Shown: positions 30,331 through 64,000 of the stretch, piece after piece
Numbering within the stretch: the stretch's first letter is position 1
Layout: each line of letters opens with the position of its first letter
From: Strigamia acuminata
Taxonomy: Eukaryota
NCBI GenBank assembly: GCA_949358305.1
Contig: OX442314.1
Span: 3,596,001-3,660,000 of the forward strand
Direction: 5' to 3'
DNA: 64,000 nt
Notes under the pieces: model-generated
What the model was told of the DNA's origin: nothing
The model's database searches: none
What the model saw: only the letters and a program-made list of their open reading frames with translations
Made by a program: the position numbers and the translations under genes

Positions 30331-30346
30331 ACTAACCATCGTCATA

Positions 30347-32868: not shown

Positions 32869-34090
32869 AAGACGACGAAGACGAAGACGAAGGCGAAGGC
32901 GAAGGCGATGGAAACGGTGGAAACGACGGCGGTCGCGTCGGACATGGTCGCGGCACCGCTCCTGGACGCGGGATGAAGCGCGATTGCGGTCTAATCGCTA
33001 GCATTGCGAAGAGCAAACGCGAACGTGAGGCTAAACAAATACGTGGACGCGAGCCGACTCCCACTACAAAGTCGTCGCCATCGTCGTCGTCGTCGTCGCC
33101 GGACAATGACAAACCGGATCCGTTCAAGGTAAAGGAAAGGGATCCTTTCCGCTGCTCTCATTAATTTGGTGGTTTGTGTTTGACTGAAATTTCAGACAGC
33201 CTTGTATCGCGAGAAACGAGACATCACGGGAAGCAAATGCGACAGTGTTTACTGCGCGGAGTCGACTAGTCCGCGACTGAGTTGCAAATCGTGTTCCTCT
33301 TCGGTACACGAAGAATGTGTGGGGCGGACATGGACCAACCGGAAAAGCTACACCAAGTTCTTTTGTAGCGGTTGTCGTAAAATTCCTCCCGCTCCTATCA
33401 CGAAACTGCGGTGAGTGTTTTCTTTCATTTTATTCTGTAATTAACTATAATTTTTTTGGCCACACCGTAGTCTAATTCGCTTGTTCATTTTTTGCTAAAC
33501 TAGTTTTAATTATTTCACACAGGTACTCCACTTACTCGATTGAGCAAAATCTCACCAAACACTTCAACATCTGCTTCCAACACGTCGCAGACGTGCTCAA
33601 TGGAAAGCTTAAAAGTTGGCGAATGAACCTCTTTGACAAAGGTGCCCCGAAGCGATCGTCCATGTCGACCGACCGACACGATTTACTGATCCAAGACGAA
33701 GAACTGGTACAGACTATAGATTTTTTATTATTTTTATATGTTTTTGTTTGTTTGTTTGTTTGTTTGTTTGTTTGTTTGTTTGTTTGTTTGTTTGTTCTTT
33801 TCTTTCGTTCGATTGAATTTTGCTCATTTACATTTCAGTGCAAACGTTTTGCTCATTCTATTATAAAGAAAATAAGCACGGACCTGCCCATAAAAACACA
33901 GTATGCGCAGACGTGGGGACCAGACGGAATTGAAACGTTCATGACAGCGGTCGCAATTCCCGAATTTCTGACCCGATTGATCTCTAAGATGGAGGACATC
34001 GATCGGGACCACGCAGACTTTTTCCTGGCTAATGTGGATCGCCCGCGGTATTTTGTTGACGATTTGAAAGACACGCGTGCCAGTCCGTGA
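32869..34090 (+). CDS. Spliced PHD-finger protein, 5' end in the gap (exons ~32869-33128, 33196-33410, 33523-33706, 33839-34090)
   Basis: C4HC3-like CDSVYC...CKSC....HEEC...CSGC; in-frame GT-AG junctions; AATAAA at ~34148. Confidence 0.7.
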
Positions 34091-34859
34091 AACGGCACAG
34101 TTTGTCAGATTTTCTTTTCTATTTTTTATTTTTTATTTGCGGTTTCGAATAAACAAACACGCACCCCGTTTCGCATTGTTTTTCTTTCGTTTATTTATTT
34201 ATCCATGCGTTTAACAAAATTTTCAGCACATAAATTGTTGTTGTGTAAAATTGCACACGCACGCGCGGTTGATTATATACACGCGCGTCCGATTTCCATA
34301 CTCGCCTCTCGACCGCGCGAGCCTTGTGAAAGCCCCGTGGTTTCCCATCATCCCTCGGTTCATCCTACACGCGTTCGCACGACGACGGCGTGGCAGCGAG
34401 TAGTTGGTCAACTGCCAAGTACTTTTCCAGCGAGAAAAAGAGGAAGAAAATTGAATCAACCGGTCTATCAACCGGCCTATCCATCGAATTAAGCAGGTAT
34501 GTCGACGAGCGAGCGCCATGTTCGCGGACGGACACAGACGGGAACCACAAGCGGTGTAATTGTCACCATCTTGCTCCCACAGATATTTCGAGAGAAATAT
34601 TTGACGAAAATAGCGTGGGTAGATATTTTCACCAGTTGCATTCAAAAGCTAACATAATTTGTATTTTACTCTAAATTTAAATGAAGATTGGCATCATTTA
34701 CCATTTAAACCCGTGATGAAATTTAAAACGCATCGGTATTTCAAGGGGGAAGGGAGGATAACACGTGTGCCATTGCTTCCCCTTTAATCACGTTCCCAGC
34801 ACGTGACAACGATCACGTTCATCCGCGCTGCACACGCGCACCAACCCGCGCGCCATTTA

Positions 34860-37558
34860 ATGACCGCGCGTTATTTGCAAACCCGAACCCCCTATTATCA
34901 GATACCCGTGTCCAACCCTTCTCGGAGGTTTGTTAAAAGATCTACTCGACCGACTCTGGTAAATCGCGAAGAAAGGTGCACCAAATGTTGTCGCAATAAT
35001 GCATATACATATCGTGGGAATATCCTGCATCCTATTTTCCCTGAAATACCAATGCAAATAGCCACCCGCGCTATTTCCACTGCAAAATTTTCTCGTTCGT
35101 CCGTACTTATTTTACTTTACTTTACTTTACTTTACTTTACTTTACTTTACTTTACTTTACTTTACTTTACTTTACTTTACTTTTTTTTTGTTTTATTTTT
35201 TGTTTTTTTGTTTTGTTTTGTTTTGCCTAGGTCCATGACGGACGGTTTTCCAAAAACGCCCAACGACACGCGCGTATGGGCCGCCACGACGACGCGGTAC
35301 CGACAGGACGTCGGATTCAACGGCGAAACACCCGGCTATCGCGGCCGATGCGTGGCTACCAGCTCGGAATTCGACTATTTCGAGGAACTCTTCGGCGAGG
35401 CGGCCCGCTTCACCGTGACGGCGACGAACCGGGCCATTCGGAGAGAGGCGAAGCAGGAGAAAGAAGTGGGAAGAACGCGAGTACAGGTGTTGGGAAAAGT
35501 TGACGCACACGTTGCACACGTCGTTCACGGGGGTTCTCAGACGCGTTTTTGGTCGATTGTTCGTATAATATACATGTTTTTCGTTTTAGACGCGTTCGAT
35601 GCAACGACCACGAGGTCCGAGAACTAGACAAAGGACGTTGGTCGCCGTGGCTTGCGGTAGTGGCGCTGGAGCACACGGACCACAACGCAGTGTTTTGAGA
35701 GTGTGTATCACCGCGGCCGACAGAAGGGCAGCCGAGCTGGCCGCCGGGCGACAGCCCCGACTTCCGTCTCGACCGCAACACCCGCCACAACCGAGAGGGA
35801 CAGCGACAAGGGCGCGCGCGCGGGTCCGCCCTCTAACGCTCGATGAGTTTTATGTATATCTAGGGATCCACGTCTTGGCCGGCTACAACAAACAACCCGA
35901 ATTGCGACACTACTGGTCGAGCAGCAACGTCGGTGATCTCGGTGCACCGGCCGTTGGGCGAGCCATGACACACAAGAGGTTTCAGGAGATTTCGCGGTAC
36001 CTTCATTACGGCACGCAACCGTCCTACCAACGGTTGCACGTTACCGGCTCTGCACGCGGCCCCGATGGCGGCAGCACAACGGCGGAAAGGGTGTCATTTT
36101 TGAAAGAACGCGAACAGGACGACCGCGCGATGAAAGTTCGCTTGTTCGCCGACCTGGTCAACAAACGCTTCCGCGCATGTCGGCAACCAAGGACGACGCT
36201 CTGCATTGACGAGTCGATGATCGCCTTTCGAGGTCGATCAAAGATAAAAGTGCGTACATTTATTTATTCATCCAGTTGTCTACATTTGTTCATTCGTTCG
36301 GCAAATTTCTTCCAGGTCTTCCAACCGGCCAAACCCATCAAATGGGGATTTGAACTTTTCACGTTGTGCGAAGCGGGCACCGGCTACGTGCTGAACGACG
36401 AGGTGCACTTGGGCAAGCGCACCAAGATGTATTTTGACCCGGACGAAGAGCCGGAACCAGAGTGAGTCAATTCATTGTCTTTTCTATTTCACCTCGGATT
36501 GCTTTACTCCAAACTTGCTAGGTATCCGGGTAGTGTCCTCGGACGCATCGTCGTATACGTGGCCAGACACTATCTCGGCATGGGGTACACTATCGCCTGC
36601 GATAATCGATTTTCGTCCGCCGTGTTATTCGAACACCTCTTCACCCGCCACAACACCATGGCCGTGGGGACGCTGCGGGCCAATTCGGCCCAGATGCCAT
36701 CAGATTTTTCGACACTCAGACGATATCAAGGCAACCGGAGAGGTAACGCATTTGCTCGGACGTGAACGCGCGTTTGATTCATTCAATTATTAATTTTTAT
36801 TCTATCTATCTATCTATCTCTCTCATTTTTTTTTTTTTTGTAGGCGATTTCATACAACGACAAAACGGTCGGTTGGTGCTCACTGCGTGGCGAGACACAA
36901 CCACCGTGAGTTTGCTCAGTACGAACGTCGACCCACTGTCAGCGGCCGGCCGTGTCTTGCGTCGTATCGGTGGCAGGAACGTGGATATTGCATGTCCGGC
37001 GCCCGCACTGTCCTACATCGAAAATTTTCATTGGGTAGACGTCTTGAACCGACTCGTCTCCTCATTCCACATCGGACGCCGGTCCAGTTATTGGCACCGA
37101 TACTTCTTCTTTCAAAAGCTGAATCAAGGTGGGATCAAGGCCCCAATCTCTGATTATTATCATTATTGTTATCGTTACAATCTTAATCTCGACTCGTCGT
37201 TTTCCATTTATTCCCCGCAGTGTGTGTCAACGCCCGAATCAACATGCGCGAAGTCACAGCCCCCGCGCGCGGCGATCGATCGCAATTACAATTCCGAAGG
37301 GCACTTGTCGCTCAACTCTTGGCTCGGGAGAGGACGAGGACGACGACCACGGCCTCGCGCGCGGCCCTACCTACTGGACCCGTCGTCCATCGAATGGAGC
37401 GCGCGGGGAAAAGTTGTCGATGCGTGGTGTGTCGCGAGGTCCACAAAGAACGCCACGAGAGCAGTTTCTGGTGCGCTCCCTGCCGGACCCACCTATGTCG
37501 CCCACGCTACCGCAATTGTTTCCAACTCCACGAAGCCGGCGCCGGTAGATTGCCGTGA
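34860..37558 (+). CDS. Intron-containing piggyBac (PGBD4-like) transposase; exons 34860-34927 (tentative), 35231-35486, 35590-36249, 36316-36461, 36522-36742, 36844-37128, 37221-37558
   Basis: YW...M...RF..I.RYLH, CIDESM (D1), KPIKWG, CDNRFSS (D2), GTLRAN, WRD...LLST, WVDVLN (D3) and C-terminal Cys-rich CVVC...CAPC.THLC.....CF..H; intron phases are compatible; AATAAA at ~37588. Confidence 0.9.
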
Positions 37559-37693
37559 TTTTCTATGCTCTTTTGTTTGTAAAACTCAATAAATAAATAA
37601 ACTTTTATGATTTCCACCAGAACATGTAACAATTTTTTTATCTATTTATCGTGTGATAGATGCAGCGGTGGCGATGATGAGATGACAATAATA

Positions 37694-37770
<77 letters not shown>

Positions 37771-37837
37771 TAAAATAAGAATGGGCATCAATTGACTCGT
37801 TGGTCTCGCGTCGGTTTTTGTATCGTCCGAGTCGCCC

Positions 37838-39185
37838 TCAAATTGTTTCGGGTTTTTCTGGTTGCTCGGTTTGAATGGCTTTGTCGAAAAGATCCGGGGG
37901 ACGACTCAACTTTGGACACGACCCCTAAAAACAGAGAGAATGAAGGGGGAGGGGGAAAAAAAGAAAGAGAAAGAAAGAAAGAGATAGATACACTCACGAA
38001 TCTGGCGATCAACCGCGAACTCCGTTCTTGGTTATGTCGAATTTGCCACTCCTTCCGCAACCGCTCTTTGAGACTTTCCACCAGCACTTCGAGCGCCTCT
38101 ATCTTCGCCGCCCGAACCCCTAGCTCCGTTGAATTATTTTTCAACTGCTCCGCATAACCTCCTACATACCGGGCCCACGATACTCCTTGTCCGGGTGGGT
38201 GCATCGCCCACTCCCGCTGCTGCCTCAGGTCTTCTTCGCGACACTTCTTCTGCCTCTTTAGGTCCTTTTCGCGCCACTCCTCCAACTGAATTTTTTTTTC
38301 TCGCTCCAGTTGCGCGAGACGAAATCGTAATTGATGCTCCTCGTATTCCTTATGGTATTTCAATTGTTGTCGGTATTCTTTTTGGTGCCACGCATCCAGA
38401 TCTTTCATCCTCTCTGTGATCATCAATTTTTCTTTTTCCTCCAGTTGCCCTCGAAGCGATCCTATCTCTCGCTTCAACTCCCCCAACTCGTCATCCACGA
38501 CTCGACGCAACCGTCGCTGCTCCTCTCGTGTTTGTTGAATTTGCGCCAATAGAAACCGCGCGCTCATTGATTCTCCATTTCCTCGCTCTTCCTCTCCAAT
38601 CGCGCGTTTCCGTTTCTCTCCAATCGCGCGTTCCCGATCCTCTCCAATCGCGCGTTCCGAATCCTCTCCAATCGCGCGTTCCAGATCTTCTGCAATCGCG
38701 CGTTTCCGATTCTCCTCAATCGCGAGTTCCCGTTCCATCTCGACATCTTCTTCCATCGCGGGTCGCTCATCTCCTCCTCCTCCTCCCTCGCATGGTACTT
38801 CCACCTCAACCACCCCAATCTAGAGACACAGACCAGTAGATGGGTAAGTAAGTAAGTAAATGGACGAATTAATGAATCGAGGTGAACCAAGGCACGACAT
38901 TACAGATTCTCACTTCGATTTCGGGTTCCTCTTTAGCACTGCACAACGGTGCGTCGTTGACGTTGGCGGCGGCGGCGGCGGCGACAATAGTGAGGGTGGC
39001 GTCATCGTCCCCTTCCTCGTCATCGACCTGGAAATAATTAATCAATCAAATCAGAAAAATATGCACATACGCGCCGTACCACTCCGTTTAATAGCCCGGG
39101 TTCATAAGCATGTAAACGCGCTTACCACGATAACGGGAATAGGTGGCCATCTTGGTCGCCTCTCTTCTTCACGCTTCGGTTCCAT
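37838..39185 (-). CDS. 4-exon orphan acidic/coiled-coil protein (39185-39126, 39027-38914, 38819-37998, 37924-37838)
   Basis: Phase-0 GT-AG junctions; internal 8-aa repeats (ERAIGEDR); long E/R/K/Q helix. Confidence 0.6.
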
Positions 39186-39419
39186 CTGAAAACGGACAAT
39201 TTCGACACCGCTGAGAGAATAAAACGACGATGGTGGTGGCAACATCAATGTTGGTTTGTTGTGCCACGAGTTTCCGGTTGTTGGGAAAGTAGAATAGTTG
39301 GACCACTCGCTGTGTGACGCCGTCGAGCGAGGGGGCAGCCACACGTGCGCGGCGAACTGAAATGTCGTGACACTACGGCGCTATGACGCGATACCTAGTG
39401 ACACTAATTGCAAACAAAA

Positions 39420-39473
<54 letters not shown>

Positions 39474-39514
39474 ACAACAAACAACAACACCGATAACGGC
39501 GACCTTTTATCGTC

Positions 39515-39594
39515 GGCCCAGGTGGTCGAGTGGGTAGTCACCCGCCTTACGGAGTCGTGGGTCGTGGGTTCGAGTCTCGACTCTCCCGAATTTT
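39515..39594 (+). ncRNA. tRNA-like RNA polymerase III unit (SINE head or small RNA)
   Basis: A box TGGTCGAGTGG (39523-39533), B box GGTTCGAGTC (39567-39576) at tRNA-like spacing, then TTTT at ~39591. The acceptor stem does not pair, so it is not a true tRNA. Confidence 0.6.
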
Positions 39595-40163
39595 CGTTTC
39601 AGTCGATCTTCTTCATATCTACGGGATAAATATTCAAAAAAGACGATGTGTACGTGCCATTACACATACTCCCTTCCCCAGGGCCTGTGGGAGGGGGGGG
39701 GAGGGGTCGAAAGATTTGATCCCTTTTATTTATTTACTTATTTTTTTTTTTTTGGTTTTATTTAATTTATTTACGTTTTAAACTACTTATTCAGTCGTCG
39801 TAACTAAACGACGAACGGATCTCTCATCTGTTTTGTTTCTCTATGATATTTTATTTATTTATTTATTTATTTATTTATTTTTTTTTTTTTAAATTTTTGA
39901 AGGGTTCCACCAACGCCACATCCATCTACTATGTCGTACAAGATCGGAAAACCTCCCGGAGCGGTGACGGAAGCGGATAGTCACGGTCACGCAATTAGGC
40001 GCTCGGTCACGCGCGCGATCATTGCGTTTTATCCATTTTTTCACATCTTTTATTCAAATTTAATAAAATGTCACACTGAATCGATCGAATGCATTAGTTT
40101 AATGGACCGAACGAAAATAAAATTATACAAACTTTTTCCATAATTTGAGAAAAAGGAAAGAGA

Positions 40164-40204
<41 letters not shown>

Positions 40205-40326
40205 CGAAGTGAAACAATTGCAAAACAGACAAATAAATAAATAAATGGACGAATGAACCGAATAAATGAATAAACTGAACAGCAAATAAAGTTTTGTTCC
40301 TTTAGGCGCACCCCCTCCCCCCCCCC

Positions 40327-40888
40327 CTAATACTCCATCGAACCATCACTGTCGTTGATAGTCTTTCCGGCATCCTTTCCCCTCCCGTCGCAATCTTCTT
40401 CTCCATCGCCTTCGCTTTCCTCCTCCTCTTCGATCTTCTCCAGGCGCTCTCGCCACCTCGCTTCCATACCCAACACAACTCTCTCCATTTTTGCCATCAT
40501 CTCCTCGAATCCTTTTGCCACCGTCTTCTCGATCCTCCCCATCCTTTTCATCACCGCCTTCTCAATCTTGTCCGCAACTATTCTCTCCACCTTCCTGGCA
40601 CCTGGTGTCCTTGGTGTCAAGAGCGACCTCTGAAAAACGAGGAAAGAGAATTAACGAATACACAAATAAATAGGTGGGCGAAAATTTTGATAGAATACTG
40701 ACCCTTCTTCTTTTTGCGGGAGTGCCCGCTTTCTTCGAATCCACCGAGCGACGTTTATTAGACGCCCCGGAACAAATGATCGTCGACGGCGGCGGGGAAC
40801 AACTGATCGTCGACGGCGGCGACGTATAGTCGACGCACTGCAAAATGGAGACAGGAGACGACATGGTGGATTCCATTTTTTCTTCCAT
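40327..40888 (-). CDS. 2-exon orphan protein: S/P-rich region, basic patch, helical core, acidic tail
   Basis: Phase-0 intron 40702-40630 joins ...PAKRRR to RSLLTPRTPGARKVERIV.... Confidence 0.55.
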
Positions 40889-42220
40889 GAAAAAAAAAAA
40901 AATAAAAAAAAAAAAGTAATAAAGTGAAAACAAAACACGCGGGATTATGGTTTTAATGTCGGGAACCTGGAAATCGAGACGCCATTTTTGTCAACGAAAC
41001 GTTATATTTTATTACATTTCAATGACGAGAATGGCCACTTTTGACTGACTAAAAAATTGATAAAAACGATAATTTATGACGAAAAGAAAAAGAAAGAAAA
41101 GACGCTATTCCGGTACTGGGAACCGGGAATTCCCGAAAAAAGAGAAAACGAAAACCCCGCGCGAGACGTTAAACTCAATATCGCTTGGTTTCTGTTGGCG
41201 GCGACAACAACAACGTGGGGCGGAAAAATAAAAAATGGCTACGCGCGTGGCTCGCCAAATTCCACGTGGATATGCGTTTGGGCGCGTGTTTGGACGTGCA
41301 TTTAGGAGTGCGGGTGGGCGAGTTTTGTGTGTGTATGTGTGTATGTGAATATGTGAAATGGTTAACTTACCTTTTAACGTTCTCACACGGTTGGTCGACA
41401 GTGAGCGAGTGTGAGCAAGTGAGTGGTTGAGTCCACGCGACAGATGGCGGCAACGGCCAAACTTATTTATTTATTTTATTTTATTTTATTTTATTTTATT
41501 TTTTTTTTCTTTTTCTTTTTCTTTTAATTAATTAATTTATCAATTATTTTAATAATTCACCAATAAATATTTTTTCTTTAATTTTCACCCATTTTATTTT
41601 TCAAACACGCGCGGTTGTATACGCGCGACGCTAGCGACGCGTTTAACCCGGTGTCGGAACCATTAACCACAGCGAAGCAAACGAAGCATCATTGGCATCC
41701 CGGTATCGCACCTCGACTCGCGCATTTACCGTAAGTAAACAATCGATTGTTTCCGGAGGGAATTTGTCCGAATTGAATCAATTCGGCAATTTATCGATCG
41801 AGGGTTTGAACAATTGTTCGATAGACGAATTTGAGGAGGAGCGAACAAACAAACAAACAAATAATTAGACAGACGGGCGCGATGAAGCGTAGCGAGTGTT
41901 TCTCGCCTCCGTGTTGACGGAACGCGACATACATACCAGATTTCGGCAACAACTGTGGCACAATAACTCGAAAACCAACGTCCAATCTAGCCTGACCGAA
42001 CAACGCAAAACAAAACACTACAAAATCAATCAAAATAACAAACAAATAGACGGTAAATTTAAAAATTCAAAACAGAATTTCCAATTTCAAGTTGTTAAAT
42101 CATCCTCGGTGCAGTGTTATTGCCGACATCGGGTTTATATGTTCCGTCAACATGCATCCCAGCTTCGACTCAAGTTTCTTCTCCGCTTATTTCGTTCAAC
42201 TTTTATTATCTTTTATCTAT

Positions 42221-42277
<57 letters not shown>

Positions 42278-42300
42278 TTTTTTATATTTTTGTTTCCTAG

Positions 42301-42478
42301 ATGGCAGACAGTGATGATGAACGATCGCGTCGAATCCGAGGACGGGGTAGGGCGGCGTGGAGGGGTGTCCCCTCGATTAACGAGATGTGGGCGTCGCCCC
42401 TACCCCGCCCTCAGCAGTTCGCACTTAGACGCGACGCCCAACCGAGGTGAGTAAATTGCAAATTGACACGATTGGTCG

Positions 42479-42517
<39 letters not shown>

Positions 42518-42934
42518 TATTTATTTATTCTTTGTTGCAGCCTTCCGCCGCCACCACGGCCGCCGATAATGCGACATCGAATTGCGGCACTTCGTGCGTC
42601 GGCGGAGGCGGAAGGACGCGCGCGTGCAACTGCGCGCGCGACCGGGTCGGTTGAGTTTGCCGCCCAAGTGCGGGACCCGGCGTTGTCTTTGAGCATGGTG
42701 GCCACGGCGGCTGCCGCAGCGGCCATGACTCTGTCGCAGTCGGTCAGAGCGACACGGGAGTCGGTGGCGGCGGTGGCAGGGGTCGTCGCGTCGGCCAACG
42801 TCACTGACCCCAACGTCGTGGCCGCCATTGAAGAGGCTGTCGATGCCGCCGTAGCCTCATCCGAAGCAGCCGAGGAGGTGCGACGGGCAACTTTGTTCGC
42901 GGCCGAGATGGCAACTCGTCACTTTAATTTTTAA
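42301..42934 (+). CDS. Spliced orphan Arg/Pro- then Ala-rich helical protein
   Basis: MADSDDERSRRIRGRG... exon spliced (GTGAG...TTGCAG, ~42447-42540) to an Ala-rich exon; AATAAA at ~43010. Confidence 0.5.
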
Positions 42935-43687
42935 TTTTTTTTTTTCCTTTTTTTTTTGTAAACAACTCGTTTTTATATATATATATACATATTTCTTTAT
43001 TTTTTTGTGAATAAATCATTTTTAATTTTTCAAATCGTTTTCAATTTTAATTTTAATTTTCATAATCATATTTAATCATTAAAACTCGTTTGTAATTAAC
43101 ATGCACATGTTAAATTATCTATCGATTATTTTTTTAAATCAATATTGTTAAAATTCAGCATTAAATAAACAAACATAACATAACATCTTTTATACCAGAC
43201 TAATCGAGATTCAAACAAACAAACACGCAAATATTAAATGCTACCACACCAAAACTAAAATAAAACTGCAAGTTGTAAACTCAGAAAAATATAAATTATT
43301 ATTTTTTATCAGAAGTATTAAATATAAGCAAAAAAAAAATTAGTTTCGATCCGGAAAACTGTTTGTTTGAAATCTAATAAAATTAAAAAAAAAAAAAAAA
43401 AAAAAAAACAAACAAGCACAAAAAGAAATAAAATCGGTGTGTTTTAAACGCAGAACCATGCTTGATTGTTAAAAAGAACAACACCGTAATCAAAAACAAC
43501 ACCAAGAACACAGAAATTATTGTCAGATTAGTAATTCGCTGTGAATGACCGTTGATTGTTTTGGAACGCTGTCCGCAATTTTTAGCGTTTCTCCGCGCGG
43601 ACGTGAAGAGGGCGCCACTCGTGTGACCGAAACAACGACGACACCAAACACACTGACGTCGAGAATTCGAGTAGCTTCGCTGTTTTG

Positions 43688-44948: not shown

Positions 44949-44983
<35 letters not shown>

Positions 44984-50364: not shown

Positions 50365-50404
<40 letters not shown>

Positions 50405-53100: not shown

Positions 53101-53398
53101 CAATAGAGGCGTTCGTGGCCTCGTTTCGTGCAACACTTGTCACCGATTTCTATTCTTTTATTTAACTCGACACGATCGTTTGCGCGCGGGATTTGACGCC
53201 CGTTCGCGTAATCCGCGTCCTTTAATGGACGCCAAAAATGTTTGTTGCGACGGTAGCGCGTTCTGGCGGCAATTTAGCGCAATGAAGCGCGATCACGGCG
53301 GACCAGAGAGAGAGAGAAAGAGAAATCGACACGACTCGACGGGAACTTATTTTTGGAACAAATTTATTGGGGGCTGCCGTCACCAGCTGCCCCGTATG

Positions 53399-53934
53399 TG
53401 TTGGTCAAAAGACCATTTTGTATCGATGAATACATTTGTTATTTCCTAGTTTTCCCTTTGTGTTTAGGTATACAGCGCATCTTTGTTATTATTTAATTGA
53501 TTTCGATGTTACCATTCGTTTTGCGCTGTCCCGTATGTAATTCCATACTTTTATCACTTTATGCTAGGATTTGTCCTATTATCAAATGATTTGTTCAAAC
53601 TTAATGTAAATTCCCGGCACTAGGTGCCACTACCCATTGCTTTTTCATCCAAGATGGCGTCATACACAGCCGTGTATGACTTAGCTGCTTTCCCACCTGT
53701 TTGGATACCTATTTGTAATGTATTACTATTTAATTAAACCGTTTTTATTGTTTTGCTCATTGTGTTTGATTTAAAGCACCTTTAGTGCTTCTTGCTAGCG
53801 CATATAAGCGGCATTAGGCCGCGCGCATTTCCGAAACGATACGCGTCGTATCGTTAACGTCTGTGCGGGTCGCACAGCGCCAATTCACGCTTTCAATCGG
53901 TTTACACCGATATTTTGCGCATTCTCTGCCTACA
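53399..53934 (+). repeat. 5' LTR
   Basis: TGTTGG...CCTACA; matches 60058-60593. Confidence 0.97.
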
Positions 53935-53935
53935 T

Positions 53936-53953
53936 TGGTAGCAGAGGATGGTT
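53936..53953 (+). promoter_or_regulatory. Primer-binding site for initiator tRNA-Met
   Basis: TGGTAGCAGAGGATGGTT is complementary to the 3' 18 nt of animal tRNA-iMet. Confidence 0.93.
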
Positions 53954-54843
53954 GTTGGTTAAACAACCACTCCATTCGCCTAATTTATCGACGTTTTTTC
54001 GCGAAATTCGCGAATTTGCGCCGATATTTTTATTTTCAGATTTTCGGCGGCCATTTTGTCTCGATTTTCGTCTCGCCTGCGACGCCGACGTTTTATCGAC
54101 GTTCACAGACGACCAGGGTCGTCAATCACACCATTATTTGTCTAATTTTCTCCGAAATTCCGCGGGATTCGCGAATTTCGAGAGAATTTCTTTCTTTTTG
54201 CAGATTTCACGTCGATTTTCGCTTCGCCAACGTCGAAGCGACGTTTTTCAACGAGAAACGGATCGAATTCCGCTGTGTATACCCCGGCGTATGCACAGTA
54301 TCGTCGATCTATTATTTTCCGGACGAAGAGCCTCGATTTATCGAGAAGAAATTCGGATTTTTCAATCCGAATTTGCGCTTTTTCCAGTTTTTCGAGAAAA
54401 CTGCGCCGTGCCTTCATTTGCACGAGGATCGCAACCGCGATCGATTCACCTATTTCTCCTTCTGTCGAAATACTATTGTTAATTTTAAGATATTATTAAG
54501 GCTTTTGGGGGTTCCTTTAGAATCGTGTTTGCCCTTGGATCGAGTCCGGTCAAGCTTACACGTATTCTCCGGTTGTGCTTGTCGTGGTACAAGTGAGGTT
54601 TCCCGCGGCTCCAGGAAGCCGATCGGACCCTCTCAGACTGGCAACCGGAGGTTATTTGATTCCTTCAGAAGGAATTGCCCAATTTGTGGTTTTTCGCCTC
54701 GAACACCGAGGGAACCGTGCAGTGAAGTGCTCCGAATTGTGAAAATTGTGAAAAGTGCTCCAATCTTGTGCGACATTTCAGCGCCTCTCTCTGAGTCAGT
54801 GTGATTTTCGCGTTGTGTTACGCTCTTCGCGAATCGATCTACG

Positions 54844-57800
54844 ATGCAGAAAGCGGCCAACTCGAACAGTTTAATTCCGGTTCTCGGTGTCGACAATTAT
54901 GAACAATGGCGATTGTCGATGCAGTTTCTCTTAAAATCGGAAGGGCTTTGGCGTCACGTAACGGAGGATAAGGAGGCAGAGCACATTGCCACCCTGACGC
55001 CAAAAGAACTTGATCGCTTTATGGTGAAGAAGGACAAGGCCCTAGGCCACATATACATCCATGTGAGCCCCGCCAAGCGTACAGTTTTGGAAACCTGTAA
55101 CACGCCAAAGGAGGCGTGGGACAAGTTGGCGAAAACCTACGCACCCAGCTCTAGAGCCCGTCAAGCGGCGATGCGCTGGGAGTTTCTCAGCCTCCAACTC
55201 CAACCTGGCGAAGATATGCCGGACTTCATTGCCCGCGTCGACAATTACGTGCGGCAACTAAGCGATGTCAACGAGATTATTAGCCCGGTTCACCACGCAT
55301 ACCAGTATTTGAAGTGTCTGCCGCCTGAATATGCTCAGGCAACATTTGCCATATACCACTGGCCGGATCCCCAATTCACGCCGAAGGATGTCGCCGAGCA
55401 GCTGATTTCCGAGCACATGCGGCTCAAATCCATCGGGTTGCTCGGAACGAGCCAATCATCAGCTCACACGTCTATGAAGGGACAATTCCGACCCCGAAAT
55501 AAATCCGGACCTCGTGATATCTCGACAGTGAAGTGTTTTAATTGCGACCAGCTCGGACATTACGCGAACCGATGTCCACGTCCACCCCGTCAACAACAGG
55601 GACAACCTACGGTTTCACTCCAACGTAATTCTCGGAGCAAGAGTCGCCGGCGCAACAAGAACGCTGCTGCGAAGGCCAACAACGCGCGTCCCCGAGAAAG
55701 CTCGCATCCACACCGAGAGGGGACATATTTTGTCAATGCGCCGCAGGTTATCCAACGTCCAGTCGCTCATTTTATGCAATCCAATGAGTGGATTCTGGAT
55801 TGCGGCGCTACAGATCACGTATCTCACGTGCGTGCCGGTTTCACCGAGTTCACCGATGTCATTCCATTCGACATCGAGTTGGGACAGGGAAAGTCCCAAG
55901 TGACGGGAAAAGGAACGGTTCGTTTGCTAATGGCGATCGATAAGACCCGGTGCACCGTGAATTTAACAAACGTCCTTTACGCGCCGAATTTCGAGGCAAA
56001 CTTGATTTCGGTTTCGAAGATAGACAAGGCGCGACATCATATCCACATTTTCAATAGTGAGATACATGTTTACGAATCGGACATTCGCAGCCCTCTTATT
56101 CGTGCAAACGAGAGAGGAGGTCTTTATTATGTGGACGGTTTGTGTACAAATCCGACATTTGCGACAACGGTTTCTCCCACTGTACAACCGACTCCAACGC
56201 TACCGCCGCAAATGTACGTGACTACGGAAGAGGATTTCATTAAAATTCCCAAACCGAAAAAGGGAAAAGGACAGCAACGAGAAATTACGGATTTTCGGAT
56301 TGAAATGCCGCTAGTTGAACCCGTGAAGCAAATTCCCGTCCAACAAGCTCCCATTCCAACCAATCCGATTCCTCCTCCTATCCCTACTCAAATCCACAAC
56401 GATTTGACCACCCTTCCTTCCTATGCGAATGCCCTACAGTCAATCCCAACGGCAACTCCTATTGCAATTCCAAATGCAAATTCCTTTCCTCCCCTTGGCA
56501 ACCCGTCTCAACCTAAAAAGAAGGTCATCGCCAATCCAGCCTCCGTCAAGGACGCCACCGGCTTATGGCATAGCCGTCTTGGCCACCTTCATACGAATGG
56601 AATGAAGCTATTGGCCGCAAACGACCAAGTTTACGGAATGTCACCAGGGGAAGTGAGCAGGGAATTGGCCTGCAACGACTGCAGAATAGCCAAATCGACA
56701 AAAGCTTCTCATAAGCCTGATCCTAATCCCTCGACTACGAAGCCTTTGGACCTTCTCCACATGGATATTTGGGGGCCAGCCCCAGTTCCATCGTTTGGAG
56801 GAGCACGTTTTGTCCTTACCGTCATCGACGACGCAACACGCTATTGCTGGATTATACCGCTAGCCCAGAAATCGCAGGTTTTCGCAACCTTTAAGGACTT
56901 CGTTGCTCGAGTTGAGAGAATCCAGGACACGCAAATAAAAGCGATTCGGACTGATCGAGGCGGAGAGTTTATGTCAAACGAGTTTCTCCGATATCTACAA
57001 GCCAAGGGCATCCAAGGTCAACGGACAAATCCGTCGTCACCACAGATGAACGGCACGGCCGAGCGCATAAACCGGACAATGGCCGACAACTTTCGTGCAG
57101 TCTTATCCGAGACTAAGTTGCCGGAGGCGCTCTGGGCCGAGCTAGCGGTCACGTTTGCCTACATCAAGAATCGGAGCCCTCATTCTCGACTTAACAATCA
57201 AGTTCCGTATATCCTTTGGCGACAGAGAGCCCTTTCGTTACGACATCTACGAAAAGTCGGTTCCAAGTGCTGGGTGCACTACACCGCACCAGGACGCAAG
57301 AAGCTGGATCCGCGGGCCTGGGAGGGATATTTAGTCGGCTACGCTTCAGGGACCCGTGGATACAGAATTTGGAACCCAACTGACAACCAAGTCTACGAAT
57401 CTATTCACGTTAAGATCGATGAGCGGCAGTCGTATCGGAAATCCATCAAAATTTCGACGCAGCAGCCGCAACAATCGTTTACTGGTCCCGGACAGCAAAC
57501 CGTTACATTTGATGATAACCTACATTACCATCAGTGGCCGAAAGGATCTGATTCCGAGGCGTCAGAACATTCTGCGAACGATTCCGAACGTGTGTCGACG
57601 GCATCCGCTTCGATGCACACGCCTCTGGCTTTTCCGCACATCCACATACCACCACCGACAACTCCGGAACGGGCATTGCTGGATTTATGTGCGACCTTAC
57701 CTCCGGGTTCTGCGTCTCTTCGACAATCCCATCATATTTCATATGAAGAGGAACGTGATACGGACCACGACATCCGAGAGATGGACGAATTGTCAATTTA

Positions 57801-59847
57801 TCCGGAAACATCCGAACACGTTGATGCGTCAGCGGAACAATCGGCACGACCATCGCCTCCGACAACTCCTCGTACATCCGCTCCGCCATCACCTCAGCGA
57901 TCGGCAGCGCCTTCTCTTCCCCGTGAAACACCGGTACCGACGCCGAGATTTATTACGACGCGTCGTCAGCAACGTGTTGATGATCAGGCTGCGCAAGGGT
58001 TGCAAATTTTCGACCCCGATCCCAATTCACCAGCGACTGCGCGCCACACTACTCATAAGTGGCGATTCGTCGGTGGAGATGGCGAGTGCCGTGAATGGGT
58101 ACGCGAGGAACACCTGAGAAAGGATCAAAAACCCGGGAAGATCTTAATTGATGTCTATTATTTTCCAACTCCGAAGATCCGTCTAAGATCTTATCACGAC
58201 ATCGAGGAGTATTGTATGTTGAACAATATTGATTACGACCCCGGACTGTTTTTCTTCGGTAATCTCGAACACAAATTGCCAACTCTTCCGGGCGTTCGTC
58301 ATGCGGCTCATCTGTGCCGAACCGAGCCGGCTTCATTCGCCGAAATTCCCAAGTTCAACGACGCTCCGAAATGGCGTGAAGCAATCGGAGAGGAACTCGA
58401 TATGTTCAAAGAGCGAGAAATCTATAAAGAAGTTCCCCGACCACCCGACACCACTATTCTTGGCTGCAAGTGGATTTTTAAACTCAAAACCGATGCAGCC
58501 GGAACCGTCACCCGATACCGAGCACGCTTAGTAGCACAAGGTTTTTATCAAACCCTCGGAGTCGATTTTGATGAGGTGTTTAGCCCAGTCGTGAACTTCA
58601 TATTGATCCGTCTGTTTTTCTGTCTTCTCGTCGTATTGCGTGGTTGGCAGGACGCCCACCTCGACGTGAAAGGTGCGTACCTGTACGGGGAATTAAAGCA
58701 TAACGTATACATGAGAATCCCTGCAGGTGCCACATGCACTGATCCAAATAACGTGTGGCTTCTTCTCAAATCGCTTTACGGCCTCCACCAATCCGGGAGA
58801 CAATGGTTCGAGAAACTTGACGAGACACTTCGGGCCCTCGGATTTCGAAGACTGCCAGCATGTAATTGTGTTTACGTGTTCGGGAATACAGCTGTTATGC
58901 TGGTCTACGTGGACGATATCGTCGTGTTTTACGCGTCCGACAGCGTTTTTAATCAGCTAATCCGTCTCATCTCTTCGAAATTCGATATAGTCAACCTCGG
59001 TCCAATCACGAAGTTATTAGGCGTCGAGTTTATCCGCGACGCCGGACGCACGTTCATAACGCAACGTGCTTATATCGCCAAACTGGTTAAGAAATTCGGG
59101 GCGTCGACCAATAATCTCGTCAAGACACCAGTGACCCCGGGAACGACACTCGTTAGAGGATCGACCGAAAACTTGGAAGATTTTCCATACCGATCTCTAA
59201 TCGGTTCACTTCTGTTTTTGGCATCGAGAACTCGTCCCGACATACTCTATTCCGTCATCGCTTTGGCACAGTACAACACGTGCTATAATCGAACCCACAT
59301 CCGCGCCCTGTTACAGGTTCTGCAGTACGTGGCAAACACTGCGGAGCTTTGCATCGAGTTATCCGGTTGCTCTTCTAGTCAACTATCTGCATTTACCGAC
59401 GCGTCGTGGGCAAGCGATCCGGAGACATCATTGAGCTTCGGAGGATACATCGTATACGTTGGAAATGTCCCTATTGGCTGGTCCTGTCGCAAACAGTCGA
59501 CCGTAGCGTGCTCAACCATGGAAGCTGAATTTATCGCCCTGGTTGAGTGCGTGAAGGAGATTTTCTGGCTCGACAGCGTGTACACCGAATTCCCGATTCT
59601 CAATCGTCTATCCCGACCTATCGTGTATTCGGACGCCCTGGCCTCGATTCAATTCACATCTAATGATATCGAGAACGCGAAGACGAAGCATATTCGCGTG
59701 AAGTTTCACTGGCTCAGGGAGTGGTTTACTGCGGGAGTCTTCGATCTTCGAAAGGTAGCCGGCGAAGCTAATACCGCCGACATATTCACAAAGTGGCTAT
59801 CTTCGGAACGTTTACGATCATTGATTTCGAAGATCTTCCGAGCATAA
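54844..59847 (+). CDS. Copia polyprotein: Gag - Zn knuckle - protease - integrase - MBD - RT - RNase H (1667 aa)
   Basis: CFNCDQLGHYANRC; WILDCGATDH; LWHSRLGH..C..C; HMDIWGP / RTDRGGEF / NGTAER; MBD-like WVREEHLRK...DVYY...LRS; LDVKGAYL, SLYGLHQSGR, YVDD; TDASWA, STMEAE, ADIFTK. Confidence 0.97.
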   Translation: MQKAANSNSLIPVLGVDNYEQWRLSMQFLLKSEGLWRHVTEDKEAEHIATLTPKELDRFMVKKDKALGHIYIHVSPAKRTVLETCNTPKEAWDKLAKTYAPSSRARQAAMRWEFLSLQLQPGEDMPDFIARVDNYVRQLSDVNEIISPVHHAYQYLKCLPPEYAQATFAIYHWPDPQFTPKDVAEQLISEHMRLKSIGLLGTSQSSAHTSMKGQFRPRNKSGPRDISTVKCFNCDQLGHYANRCPRPPRQQQGQPTVSLQRNSRSKSRRRNKNAAAKANNARPRESSHPHREGTYFVNAPQVIQRPVAHFMQSNEWILDCGATDHVSHVRAGFTEFTDVIPFDIELGQGKSQVTGKGTVRLLMAIDKTRCTVNLTNVLYAPNFEANLISVSKIDKARHHIHIFNSEIHVYESDIRSPLIRANERGGLYYVDGLCTNPTFATTVSPTVQPTPTLPPQMYVTTEEDFIKIPKPKKGKGQQREITDFRIEMPLVEPVKQIPVQQAPIPTNPIPPPIPTQIHNDLTTLPSYANALQSIPTATPIAIPNANSFPPLGNPSQPKKKVIANPASVKDATGLWHSRLGHLHTNGMKLLAANDQVYGMSPGEVSRELACNDCRIAKSTKASHKPDPNPSTTKPLDLLHMDIWGPAPVPSFGGARFVLTVIDDATRYCWIIPLAQKSQVFATFKDFVARVERIQDTQIKAIRTDRGGEFMSNEFLRYLQAKGIQGQRTNPSSPQMNGTAERINRTMADNFRAVLSETKLPEALWAELAVTFAYIKNRSPHSRLNNQVPYILWRQRALSLRHLRKVGSKCWVHYTAPGRKKLDPRAWEGYLVGYASGTRGYRIWNPTDNQVYESIHVKIDERQSYRKSIKISTQQPQQSFTGPGQQTVTFDDNLHYHQWPKGSDSEASEHSANDSERVSTASASMHTPLAFPHIHIPPPTTPERALLDLCATLPPGSASLRQSHHISYEEERDTDHDIREMDELSIYPETSEHVDASAEQSARPSPPTTPRTSAPPSPQRSAAPSLPRETPVPTPRFITTRRQQRVDDQAAQGLQIFDPDPNSPATARHTTHKWRFVGGDGECREWVREEHLRKDQKPGKILIDVYYFPTPKIRLRSYHDIEEYCMLNNIDYDPGLFFFGNLEHKLPTLPGVRHAAHLCRTEPASFAEIPKFNDAPKWREAIGEELDMFKEREIYKEVPRPPDTTILGCKWIFKLKTDAAGTVTRYRARLVAQGFYQTLGVDFDEVFSPVVNFILIRLFFCLLVVLRGWQDAHLDVKGAYLYGELKHNVYMRIPAGATCTDPNNVWLLLKSLYGLHQSGRQWFEKLDETLRALGFRRLPACNCVYVFGNTAVMLVYVDDIVVFYASDSVFNQLIRLISSKFDIVNLGPITKLLGVEFIRDAGRTFITQRAYIAKLVKKFGASTNNLVKTPVTPGTTLVRGSTENLEDFPYRSLIGSLLFLASRTRPDILYSVIALAQYNTCYNRTHIRALLQVLQYVANTAELCIELSGCSSSQLSAFTDASWASDPETSLSFGGYIVYVGNVPIGWSCRKQSTVACSTMEAEFIALVECVKEIFWLDSVYTEFPILNRLSRPIVYSDALASIQFTSNDIENAKTKHIRVKFHWLREWFTAGVFDLRKVAGEANTADIFTKWLSSERLRSLISKIFRA

Positions 59848-60045
59848 ACTTATCGTGACATTCCTAGTTTCTTTTCACCCGACTTCGAGGATCATCGGGT
59901 TTCTGTGGGAATACCGAGCTTAGTTAAGTGATAACCACGACAGTACCCGGCCCGATGGTTCGACTTTATCATCTTTTTTTTCTCAACGATTATCAACTGT
60001 AATTCCAGTTTACGTTCATCTTGTCCCCTGATAAATATTTCCATC

Positions 60046-60055
60046 GAAGAGGGGA
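60046..60055 (+). promoter_or_regulatory. Polypurine tract
   Basis: GAAGAGGGGA, 2 nt before the 3' LTR. Confidence 0.85.
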
Positions 60056-60057
60056 TT

Positions 60058-60593
60058 TGTTGGTCAAAAGACCATTTTGTATCGATGAATACATTTGTTA
60101 TTTCCTAGTTTTCCCTTTGTGTTTAGGTATACAGCGCATCTTTGTTATTATTTAATTGATTTCGATGTTACCATTCGTTTTGCGCTGTCCCGTATGTAAT
60201 TCCATACTTTTATCACTTTATGCTAGGATTTGTCCTATTATCAAATGATTTGTTCAAACTTAATGTAAATTCCCGGCACTAGGTGCCACTACCCATTGCT
60301 TTTTCATCCAAGATGGCGTCATACACAGCCGTGTATGACTTAGCTGCTTTCCCACCTGTTTGGATACCTATTTGTAATGTATTACTATTTAATTAAACCG
60401 TTTTTATTGTTTTGCTCATTGTGTTTGATTTAAAGCACCTTTAGTGCTTCTTGCTAGCGCATATAAGCGGCATTAGGCCGCGCGCATTTCCGAAACGATA
60501 CGCGTCGTATCGTTAACGTCTGTGCGGGTCGCACAGCGCCAATTCACGCTTTCAATCGGTTTACACCGATATTTTGCGCATTCTCTGCCTACA
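60058..60593 (+). repeat. 3' LTR
   Basis: No difference from the 5' LTR seen by eye. Confidence 0.97.
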
Positions 60594-62352
60594 GTATGCC
60601 CGTATGCCGATGCAATAGAGAAAACACTTTTTACAACGCATAAATGACATCTACTCCACCACGAACACCCCGAGGGTATTGAGACACGAAAAGGACGAAA
60701 CAGGTCCGTTTAAGCGCTCAGCGCTTGATGGCTCCTTGTTCGAAACAAGTGTGTCTGGTCTGGGTTTGAAAATGTCCGCAGAGTCGGTCGAATCCAACGA
60801 CAACAACTGCGTCGCCGGGGATGGTGCGAGGCGTCCGGAAGCCAGTTCTAAAATGTAAAATGTAATTTGTTTTCAATTTTTTTGTTGGGATCGACCCCAA
60901 CGAAGATAATCTCATTAAACAATGGAGCACGAACCGCGAAACTGATCCCATGATCGGGAAATCGAACTCCAGTCGTCCGCCCATCGTCGATCGCCAGGTA
61001 TCTTTAAGCGATAAACATGTCGCGCCTCGAGAGTTCGTGGATCTGATCTGACTTAATCTGACCTGGATCGAACCCGAATTTGAATCTTAATTTTACGTAT
61101 TTTTTAGCGTTTCAACATTACGTCAGTTTCCTTTTATTCAACAATTATACTTTTAATTTTCGTCGATAGTTATTTGCATTCCGACGCGTTGCTATCGAAT
61201 TTGACGTCGGGTCTCGGTCGATTGGCTGCGTTCAAGTCAGAATTGCGAACACGGGACCAATACACAGGCCGCCGTAACGCTAAAAATGAGGGACCTTTCC
61301 GCAATTTGCACACCACGAGGTCCGAATAGATGAATTAATAAATAAGTAAACGAATAAACAAATAAATAAACAATGCCGACGCCGTAGAAACGTGTAGAAG
61401 CGTGTTTCTGGACGTTTCAGTGCCGGTGCGCATCCGTGAGTAAAGTGTGCGTCGATTTAGCGGCGTGATCGCGTCACCCTTAATTGTACGCGCGTTTAAA
61501 TGCGATCTAATGCGCGATGAGGCGCGCAATACGGGGTAGAAGAGCGGGGCATTGTTTCAACCGCGTAGATCGCAGAGATAAATTAACACGATACGAATCG
61601 AATCGAATCAACTCGACAGGAGCTTTATTTGAAACAATGTGTCGGGGCTGCCGGCGCTCGTCGGCGCCAACTGCCCCTATTTGTCGCGAACGCGACCCTC
61701 CGACCATTCGCGTCTGGCCAGTGACGACGCAGAATAAAACGAGCGCAATCAAACCGATGCCACACACCGGAACCCTCCGGATATCCGCGAGGGCCCGGAA
61801 CGCTCTGAGAATGTTCGCAAAGTCCGGTCGAGCGCAATCTCAAAAACTCGCGTCGATTACATGGTGCGAGACAACCGGAAAAGAAAAAATAAAATATACA
61901 ACGGCGGATTTTCCACAAAATCTTTGTTCCAGTAGGTCGCTGCGAGGATAATCTAATTATTGGTCGGAACACAAATCGCGGAACCGACTCCAAGATCAGG
62001 AAATTAAACTTTGATCGTTTTCCCTATTATGCACATTTTTTGTTCCGAGTGGCAATGTCCGGTACGCGCGCGTCCGTCCCCTCCCTCTTTCTACCCGGAC
62101 ACCAAGACCCGGTGGACGATAGGTTGTGTGGACACTCGAATATTCGGGGTTCGGTCCTTTGCATTTATTCATAATGAAGACTCTTCTTACGTACAACTTA
62201 GCGTTATTTTTTTTCCCGCGTGTATTGTTTGCCGTCAACATGTTTAAAGTGCGTGCCGACTCGATCAGCGACCAAATAAGCGGAGTTGTAAACCCACGCC
62301 AAATTGAACGACTGCGGAAATATCGTCGCCAGTCCACGCATGCTCCACTTGG

Positions 62353-62386
<34 letters not shown>

Positions 62387-62811
62387 GCTCACCCACTCAC
62401 TCGCTTTCTCTCGCTCTCACTCTCGCTCTCGCTCAAGCTCTCGTCGACACCACGTTGCAGTGAAGCACGAAGCTTCGCTTCAATTGTCGCCATTTTTAAA
62501 TCGAGCTAGAGCCGGGCAAAGACAGTTTGCGTTTGCAGTTGCGTGTTTTGTTTCGTTTCGTTAAACGTGAGTGAGCGAGCGAGTGAACGAGCGAATGAGC
62601 CAAGTGTTTTGTGGTATCATTTGTCAATTATTCCCGCCCAATTATGCACGTATTGTATCCGTGAGCGCGCGCAGAAAAAATTTGTTTGTTTGGTCATTGT
62701 TGCTAACAGAAAATGAAGCTCAATTTAATAACCCATTTGTTTTTGTTTTTTTTGTTTTTTTTTCTTTTTCTTTTGATTTTATCTATCGCGTTTTTTTCGT
62801 TTTCAGAGACC

Positions 62812-63498
62812 ATGATGACAGGAACATGGAAGGTGAAAGGGGAAGGGGAAACATCGTCCATCTCGACGCCCGTTCTCCGTGCGACGCGGACTAGAACCAC
62901 ATCGCCGTCGTCGACTGCCGCTATCGCGTCGGTACCGCTCGATCCCGCTTTGTCCAAGCGTCCAGGCAGGCAGAAAAGGGGTAAACTGACGCTGATCAAG
63001 AGGGTACGCGCCACGTCTTGGGTTTTATTTATTTGCTTATTCTCTTTTTTTTTTTTTTTTCTCCCTTTCCCTTTCCAGTCGCGAAGAGAGACATCATTGC
63101 CGCCGCCGTCTTCACCTTCGGTGCTGCGGGAAGAGAGATTGGCAACAAGGGTCGAGGCGGTGATAACAGAAAAAATGGAGAATGTGGTGAAGAATGTGGT
63201 GAAGAATGTGGTGGAGAATGTGGCGGAGAATGTGGTGGAGAAGGTTATGGCGAAGCGAATGGAGAAGGTGTTGGCGGAGCAACTGGACAAAGTGGTTGCG
63301 GAGCGAATGGAGAAAGCGGCGAGATGGCGGGAAAAGAAGACGAAGACGTTGTGCGTGTTGAAGTCGGTGGGGAAGAAGCTAGAGGCGGTGCAGGCGGAGG
63401 TGAAGGAAATGGAGATGGACATGGTGGACATGATGGAGGAGGAAGATGGCTGTGGTTACGAAGGACTCGATGATAACGGTGATGAAAAGGAGTGGTAG
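62812..63498 (+). CDS. 2-exon orphan protein, likely paralog of 40327-40888
   Basis: Phase-0 intron 63004-63078 after a basic patch; VENV/VEKV helical repeats; acidic tail; AATAAA at ~63573. Confidence 0.6.
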   Translation: MMTGTWKVKGEGETSSISTPVLRATRTRTTSPSSTAAIASVPLDPALSKRPGRQKRGKLTLIKRVRATSWVLFICLFSFFFFFLPFPFQSRRETSLPPPSSPSVLREERLATRVEAVITEKMENVVKNVVKNVVENVAENVVEKVMAKRMEKVLAEQLDKVVAERMEKAARWREKKTKTLCVLKSVGKKLEAVQAEVKEMEMDMVDMMEEEDGCGYEGLDDNGDEKEW

Positions 63499-64000
63499 GG
63501 AGAAGGGGTGATGGGCCCTGGAGACGATGGTTACGATGTGACCGACAGTGACCACAACCAAGATTCTATCAAATAAATAGATAAATAAATTGACAAGTGT
63601 ACTCATAATTGTTGTATAGATTCTTTCGATCGAATAAACATTGTTTTAATATAGTTGTTGTCACGGTTCATACTTTGGCGAAAGCATGTCTGGCGATGGC
63701 AAGGGGCGCACGAGTGGCTACTCGCATGTCGTCCCCTGGGACATGCAGACTCGCTCTCGGACCTCAGGACTCATATTGTCGTCTGGCTCGCGTAGACAGC
63801 GTAGACAGCGATGGGGCAAGAAGTCTGGGAGATAAAGTTAAAATCTGAAACTGCAAATTTTTCACAAAACATTTGTTTCAATCGGTCCCAACGACGATAA
63901 TCTAATTAACAGTTGGAGCGCAAACCACGAAACCGATTCGACGATTGTGGGATTAAACTTTCATTGTCTTCCATGGGTATTTTTTATTCCACAGGGTGTC

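Follow-up and report, generated by a model that had tools for sequence, protein, structure and literature searches.

A repeated, intron-bearing piggyBac-like transposase gene in a gap-bounded, CGCG-rich block of the Strigamia acuminata genome

How much of its surroundings belongs to a transposase gene's mobile unit? This question is raised by a 64,000-nt stretch of the genome of Strigamia acuminata (assembly GCA_949358305.1, contig OX442314.1, positions 3,596,001 to 3,660,000 of the forward strand; hereafter the window), whose second half (32869-64000; hereafter the block) contains a piggyBac-like transposase gene among other spliced genes. An earlier note on this DNA, made from the sequence alone, had interpreted the block as the interior of a large transposon or endogenous virus mobilised by this transposase. 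With moderate confidence, we favour a narrower interpretation: the block is a gap-bounded, CGCG-rich contig in which a piggyBac-like transposon with introns, one copy out of a repeated family and likely larger than its transposase gene, is found together with an independent, young copia retrotransposon.

The transposase gene and its repeated family

The transposase model is built from six exons (35235-35486, 35590-36249, 36316-36461, 36522-36742, 36844-37128 and 37221-37558), which are separated by five GT-AG introns of 103, 66, 60, 101 and 92 nt. We compared the block with Pfam using 178 of 178 six-frame open reading frames (ORFs) of at least 70 aa and 194 of 194 ORFs of 40-69 aa outside the copia element; only piggyBac and copia domains score above the curated cut-offs. 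The family DDE_Tnp_1_7 (PF13843) matches three successive ORFs of the transposase gene with E values of 5e-29, 4e-7 and 2e-4 and with 102.1, 29.9 and 21.0 bits, the first two lying above the cut-off of 22.4, and the matched parts of the profile (24-145, 192-247 and 253-338) are collinear with successive exons. The three catalytic aspartates can be located by alignment: the first (LCIDES) corresponds to LSLDEG in piggyBat (PDB 9c0f), the second (ACDNRF) to ITCDNWF in the T. ni piggyBac chain (PDB 6x67/6x68), and the third lies within a VD column that is invariant in all six sequences of our alignment A1, that is, in five full-length relatives and the window gene. Together with the open frame of 633 aa and the Pfam match at E 5e-29, these residues bear out the earlier identification of a piggyBac transposase, and the gene is intact, with its DDD triad retained. 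Its last exon encodes a cysteine-rich end (37223-37555) that matches no Pfam family, in which a CxxC...CxxC...C...H pattern can be read and which is similar to the ends of three of the library relatives described below (P0126, P0127 and P0132).

A search with exon 2 against 1.84 billion representatives yielded 904 hits at E<=1e-3 and 23 at E<=1e-10. The nearest library proteins are 41-52% identical to the transposase over this exon, with 52% for the best. The closest relatives, among them P0126, P0127 and P0132, are uninterrupted piggyBac ORFs on short metagenome contigs, and a metagenome scan returned a single locus (L001), which contains the intronless 3' part of a relative and no recognisable end. 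A protein word search with a transposase exon found no relative among longer proteins and, among those of similar length, one JGI fragment with 47% identity; since the organism's own proteins are absent from the collection searched, its cluster sizes are unusable as a copy count. With the canonical piggyBac-like elements (T. ni, piggyBat), the window gene shares the DDE_Tnp_1_7 fold family, the three catalytic aspartates and the membership in a repeated family; judged from the pattern readable in exon 6, it may also share the cysteine-rich C-terminus. Unlike these, it carries five spliceosomal introns and lacks TTAA-flanked terminal inverted repeats (TIRs) in the 2.4 kb upstream and the 26 kb downstream.

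Domesticated piggyBac-derived genes include PGBD1-5 and ciliate PiggyMac/Tpb. Like them, the window gene is an intron-bearing, TIR-less transposase gene among cellular-type genes, and it might accordingly be a domesticated host gene in a fast-evolving gene cluster, in which case the variants found in sequencing reads would be old, dead relatives. The five introns fit this alternative, given the uninterrupted ORFs of the closest relatives (L001, P0126, P0127 and P0132), and so do the missing TIRs and the host-like G+C content at third codon positions (GC3); the intact catalytic triad does not.

Of the sampled words of 33001-43000, a share of 0.68-0.74 is present in three sequencing runs, which belong to a single organism and to two studies; no RNA run was among those listed. 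For the repeat test, we matched the contigs of four runs, at a likeness of at least 80%, to the stretch 35226-37686 (2461 nt), and it is to this stretch that all our statements on repetition refer. In run X1, 37 contigs match, 17 of them at 99% identity or more, 9 at 95-99%, 4 at 90-95% and 7 at less than 90%; in run X2, which comes from the other study, there are 1849 matching contigs, distributed over the same classes as 1108, 591, 126 and 24. The window-like path in X1 is made up of five contigs with 0-7 substitutions each, the last of which also shows an 8-nt difference in the length of a microsatellite. These contigs run through introns 1, 3 and 5 at a depth of 1051-1459. Two other variants in X1, about 80-82% alike, reach depths of 3483 and 2996, and a further variant one of 25.8. 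The earlier note had proposed a check of the block for dispersed collinear copies; these variants of unequal depth answer it for the transposase gene.

The contigs do not simply reproduce the letters of the window. At nine places (35319, 35546, 35554, 35634, 35675, 35934, 36476, 36478 and 37262), the letter of the window is contradicted by more than 99% of the depth in X1 as well as in X2, and at a tenth (35773) by about 89% of the X2 depth; this is as expected if the contigs represent the majority of a family and the window one of its copies. Sub-variants of high depth that differ by microsatellite length or indels also point to several copies; X1 and X2 both show them at 36257, and X1 alone at 37587.

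The transposase gene is a member of a repeated DNA family, introns included, and as the repeated copies contain introns, they are not retrocopies. If the depth of 25.8 is assumed to approximate a single copy, the window-like variant would amount to some 40-55 copies, although contig depth is not copy number and the baseline is an assumption. Since many diverged variants occur at unequal depths, we consider a lone domesticated gene unlikely. On this point, domesticated genes such as PGBD and PiggyMac also differ from the window gene, which exists in many diverged and near-identical DNA variants of very unequal depth. Both the presence of the window-like variant, with its introns, in contigs 40-55 times deeper than another X1 variant and the deep length variants at 36257 and 37587 are at odds with domestication; further, nothing usable came from two other organisms whose runs belong to the same study (no contig in X4 and only pieces of 18-37 nt in X5), which is no proof of absence. 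Overall, we judge domestication improbable.

In X1, a second transposase subfamily, about 80-82% alike, exceeds the window-like one in depth by a factor of 2-2.5, which is not so in X2; the copy numbers within the family may differ between samples.

Ends, edges and composition of the block

TIRs anchored at TTAA were searched for by pairing 12 TTAA sites on the left with 152 on the right, at three stringencies (12-mers with up to 2 mismatches, 10-mers with up to 1 and 13-mers with up to 3). In 32869-64000, these searches returned no credible TTAA-flanked inverted pair around the transposase gene, only AT-rich chance matches, in agreement with the previous remark that no TIRs are adjacent to it; the inverted repeats in 32869-41000 are of low complexity only. 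As no such pair was found inside the block, a canonical mobile unit with this gene would have at least one end outside 32869-64000 and would hold more than the transposase gene. For at least one end of a canonical unit, this fits the proposal that the ends lie outside the window. A pair of words, TTAACCC at 41643 and GGGTTAA at 46164, was rejected as candidate ends because the two arms have only 8 nt in common. In the window, this word is rarer than expected by chance (3 observed vs 9.9 expected).

The left boundary of the block had been placed at 32869. Immediately before this position lies a run of exactly 200 N, and the boundary is therefore an assembly edge, not a biological one: the block is a separate assembly contig that begins after the gap. 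On the other side of the gap, the first half of the window contains a minus-strand gene for an ABCA-type transporter (domains ABC_tran, ABC2_membrane_3 and R1_ABCA1), followed by a Maverick/Polinton at about 21385-32668, with genes for a chromodomain integrase, a parvovirus-type PLA2-like domain, an A32-type ATPase, a double-jelly-roll capsid protein and a protein-primed PolB. The PolB ORF (30350-32668, minus strand) is cut at 32668 by the gap, and the adjacency of block and Maverick is supported by scaffolding alone. A repeat comparison within the window found no repeat common to the halves left and right of the gap. The gap has also removed the N-terminus of the Maverick PolB and the right end of the Maverick.

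The block had been described as CpG- and CGCG-rich and unlike both the ABCA locus and the Maverick, and here the composition indeed breaks beyond chance. The GC content per 2 kb is 0.40-0.51 in the block vs 0.30-0.43 before it. The word CGCG occurs 0-3 times per 2-kb bin before 32001, 11 times in the bin that spans the gap (32001-34000) and 8-23 times in each full bin from 34001 on, except for a copia-internal bin with 3; of CGCGCG, the block has 62 occurrences (3 within copia) and 1-32668 a single one. Measured against a first-order Markov model, CGCG is in excess in the block without copia (229 observed, 145.8 expected), at 1.2-1.85 times the expectation in each of five sub-blocks, the part from 60594 to 64000 included. 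It is depleted in the ABCA region (12 observed, 35.7 expected; 7 and 14 in the ABCA exons), in the Maverick (8 and 27.1) and in copia (30 and 44.8). In several other respects, the two sides are alike. CpG is depleted on neither side of the gap, GC3 is 0.49-0.73 in the ORFs of the block vs 0.53-0.70 in the ABCA exons, and the introns of the ABCA gene are likewise short, T-rich and bounded by GT-AG. With this one gene as the host comparison, the block looks like the coding style of the same genome plus a private CGCG excess.

It could be objected that the break is an artefact of a wrong join or a foreign contig, and that the DNA right of the gap comes from elsewhere in the genome or from a co-sequenced eukaryote. 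After all, the composition changes exactly at the 200-N gap, the halves have no repeat in common, and the runs were searched with the block only, so that the ABCA/Maverick half need not be present in them. However, GC3, the CpG excess and the short, T-rich GT-AG introns do not differ between the two sides, and a contig that breaks inside a Maverick is an expected effect of a repeat. We regard this objection as very improbable.

One part of the block is clearly separate from the rest. The element at 53396-60593, which takes up 23% of the block, is a complete Ty1/copia retrotransposon with two 539-bp long terminal repeats (LTRs; 53396-53934 and 60055-60593) that are identical at 538 positions (99.8%), begin with TG and end with CA; the 5-bp target duplication GTATG flanks it on both sides. 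Its ORF (54805-59844, 1680 aa) encodes, in this order, gag, a protease-like barrel, an integrase and a reverse transcriptase (RVT_2). The claim that the transposase was the only recognisable enzyme of the block had missed this element. Given its own LTRs and target duplication, copia is independent of the rest of the block, and it constitutes a separate, very recent insertion. It has the gag-protease-integrase-reverse transcriptase order, the TG...CA LTRs and the 5-bp target duplication in common with other Ty1/copia elements; unlike in these, the ORF is long, integrase and reverse transcriptase being set apart by an insert of about 300 aa. The nearest library proteins are 43-46% identical. 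Four of the closest relatives (P0002, P0003, P0006 and P0009; 35-46% identity) carry a precomputed methyl-CpG-binding domain (PF01429), and Pfam did not detect this domain in the window copia.

Neighbouring genes and repeats

The remaining features of the block are listed in Table 1. Of all gene models, only that of the transposase is backed by homology. For G1, M1, M2, P1 and exons 1-4 of M3, models built by hand predict open frames throughout, and the introns, 62-132 nt long, are bounded by GT-AG; the earlier description of short-intron genes is compatible with these models, and their dense packing appears plausible.

Table 1. Coordinates of the features in and at the edge of the block (window positions)
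Feature	Position	Strand	Basis and remarks
Scaffold gap	32669-32868		Run of exactly 200 N
G1 (5' part lost in gap)	32871-34090	+	Open model, 3 GT-AG introns
piggyBac-like transposase gene	35235-37558	+	Pfam; open six-exon model, 633 aa
M1, 360-aa coiled-coil protein	37838-39185	-	Four-exon model, convergent with transposase gene
tRNA-like stretch	39516-39600	+	Sequence read: box-A-like and box-B-like words, TTTT run
M2, 162-aa protein	40327-40888	-	Two-exon model; basic patch, then helical acidic part
P0, Ala-rich protein	41650-42935	+	Approximate spliced model, by eye
M3	43938-45976	-	Model of at least 6 exons, exons 1-4 script-verified; no Pfam family
M4/M5, acidic protein	46290-49470	-	Approximate multi-exon model, by eye
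Repeat R700, copy a	52297-52987	+	72% identical to 61133-61808
Ty1/copia LTR retrotransposon, complete	53396-60593	+	LTRs, GTATG target duplication, Pfam
Repeat of ~150 nt, three copies	~60870-61050, 61890-62046, 63839-63990	+ (63839-63990)	~71% alike
Repeat R700, copy b	61133-61808	+	Pairs with copy a
HSP90-like ORF	61999-62352	-	31-aa fragment, E 5e-5, 22.9 bits vs cut-off 24.4
P1, 203-aa helical acidic protein	62812-63498	+	Two-exon model

Upstream of the transposase gene, the visible exons of G1 (32871-33128, 33196-33410, 33523-33706 and 33839-34090) encode, from the N-terminus on, an acidic and basic part, a PHD-like part of the C4HC3 type and a C-terminal part with a weak likeness to RTC4. 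The description of G1 as a PHD protein finds partial support: the C4HC3 spacing can be read in 33196-33410, with an unusual first pair (C-x4-C), but the PHD match (E 1e-4) reaches 22.1 bits vs a cut-off of 28 and 21.7 vs one of 24, and thus stays below Pfam's thresholds. The RTC4-like match (E 4e-4) has 21 bits vs a cut-off of 23.7. Among the papers listed by a literature search on RTC4-like domains and transposons, the term RTC4-like does not occur. On the downstream side, M1 contains 24-nt coding repeats at 38590-38741 and matches no Pfam family.

Some of the finer readings did not hold. The stretch between M1 and M2 that had been taken for an RNA polymerase III unit, and that is preceded by an (AAC)25 microsatellite, is tRNA-like at best: ARAGORN predicts no gene in 39516-39600, Rfam has no match there, neither at the gathering threshold nor at E<=1, and a strict box-B pattern does not match either. 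M3 has one C2H2-like finger within an exon (44871) and a second one that is split by an intron, followed by an acidic, Lys-rich tail. It had been credited with binding motifs for HP1 and CtBP. It does contain PVVRL, an instance of PxVxL, a pattern that occurs 12 times across all frames and hence at chance level; the CtBP motif PxDLS is absent from it. A search for dispersed 10-mer motifs recovered coding tandem repeats only.

In M4/M5, there are 39-nt and 123-nt coding repeats at 46374-46900 and an intron of 660 nt with short degenerate repeats. This intron (47550-48210, minus strand) contains a 21-nt tandem repeat with degenerate words of the GG(T/C)CCCG(C/T)GCG type on both sides, and the array is possibly a small non-autonomous element. 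The R700 and ~150-nt repeats surround copia in an arrangement that would result from the duplication of a unit of about 1.6 kb prior to the copia insertion. Among these repeats lies the HSP90-like fragment; it is similar to a conserved part of HSP90 (KLYVRRVFI) and probably represents a gene piece that was captured or has decayed.

Two observations concern the ABCA gene in the first half of the window. The stretch 1-3858 (3858 bp) is copied 14.1 kb downstream, at 14143-18000, with 99.97% identity, which reflects either a very recent segmental duplication or a duplication in the assembly. Further, an ABCA intron at 7560-8340 (minus strand) is occupied by a satellite with CAATGTTTTT-like units of 10-12 nt, about 800 nt in all.

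The extent of the mobile unit

Large elements with piggyBac-type mobility are known from fish. In medaka, Teratorn is reported to be a piggyBac element fused with a herpesvirus, 180 kb in length (PMC5601938; further literature on Teratorn: PMC5822658, PMC10175614; review of giant transposons: PMC6431247). The block resembles Teratorn in its piggyBac-superfamily transposase, in the absence of nearby ends and in the long succession of other genes. In contrast to Teratorn, it has no herpesvirus core genes (polymerase, capsid, terminase, protease), and the neighbours of its transposase are spliced orphans. The scanned ORFs of the block (178 and 194) include no capsid, packaging, polymerase or other viral hallmark in Pfam, and scans of viral contigs with a transposase exon and an M1 exon found no relative. 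The idea of an endogenous virus is not borne out, and as viral core genes were searched for and are absent, the block is not a Teratorn-type element.

A giant element need not be viral. It could span the whole block, which measures at least 24 kb once the nested copia is subtracted, with G1, M1, M2, P0, M3, M4/M5 and P1 as cargo and both TTAA ends outside 32869-64000. We consider this possible, though doubtful. Equally tentative is the more specific notion of a non-viral piggyBac element of at least 24 kb, present in tens of copies, in which a transposase with five introns moves a fixed set of spliced, nuclear-type orphan genes. Its cargo would consist of a PHD-like reader, zinc-finger, coiled-coil and acidic proteins and the tRNA-like unit, and it would have its own CGCG-rich composition in an AT-rich host genome, a picture that we again think unlikely. 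Literature searches listed no piggyBac element with non-viral multi-gene cargo; this does not prove that none is in print.

Several observations weigh against our narrower interpretation. The CGCG excess is uniform over the five sub-blocks, also to the right of copia, and absent from ABCA, Maverick and copia, and such a uniform, private signature fits a single entity with a composition of its own. In the 24 kb outside copia, Pfam recognised no conserved cellular gene family. The contigs of high depth reach 37686, which is 128 nt past the stop of the transposase gene and about 150 nt from that of M1, so that the repeated unit probably runs into M1. Finally, contig depth is no copy number, and the contig count in X2 may be inflated by very deep sequencing. 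A giant element would also agree with the repeated transposase family and the lack of ends within the block, with the orphan status of all other genes, none of which belongs to a conserved family, and with a contig that breaks inside G1, as assemblies often do in repeats.

On the other side, the composition was compared with a single host gene and the repetition measured for the transposase stretch only, and GC3 and intron style equal those of that host gene, ABCA. The supposed cargo also lacks the internal kinship once ascribed to it: the acidic helical proteins M2 and P1 and the M5 exon had been called paralogous, but BLASTP gives E values of 0.32 and 0.20 or no alignment at all, none of which is significant. 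Moreover, the block contains nested ordinary repeats and copia, as would any genomic region. What remains of the large-transposon interior is thus a repeated transposase, the absence of ends and a uniform signature, while its left edge is the gap and its copia is independent.

We therefore return to the interpretation given at the outset, that of one copy of a repeated piggyBac-like transposon next to an independent copia. This copy likely belongs to a cut-and-paste unit that exceeds the gene in size and has one end or both outside the window; since no ends were found nearby and contigs of high depth extend to 37686, the unit of the family is probably larger than the gene as well. The family would move, or would have moved recently, by TTAA cut-and-paste of the piggyBac type and may number tens of copies. 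The PHD-like G1 upstream, the convergent M1 or both may lie inside the mobile unit, and for now we treat the other orphan genes out to 64000 as neighbours rather than cargo.

Either way, the map of the window is corrected, as the left edge of the block is a gap, a young copia makes up about a quarter of it and several motif calls fail. If the mobile part is restricted to the transposase and one or two neighbours, the finding would add a further divergent family to piggyBac, of interest chiefly because of the five introns and the large distance between gene and ends. A mobile unit that takes in the whole block would be the first of the large piggyBac elements to be loaded with spliced genes of cellular type instead of a captured virus, and one on which the growth of cut-and-paste elements and the retention of their cargo could be studied.

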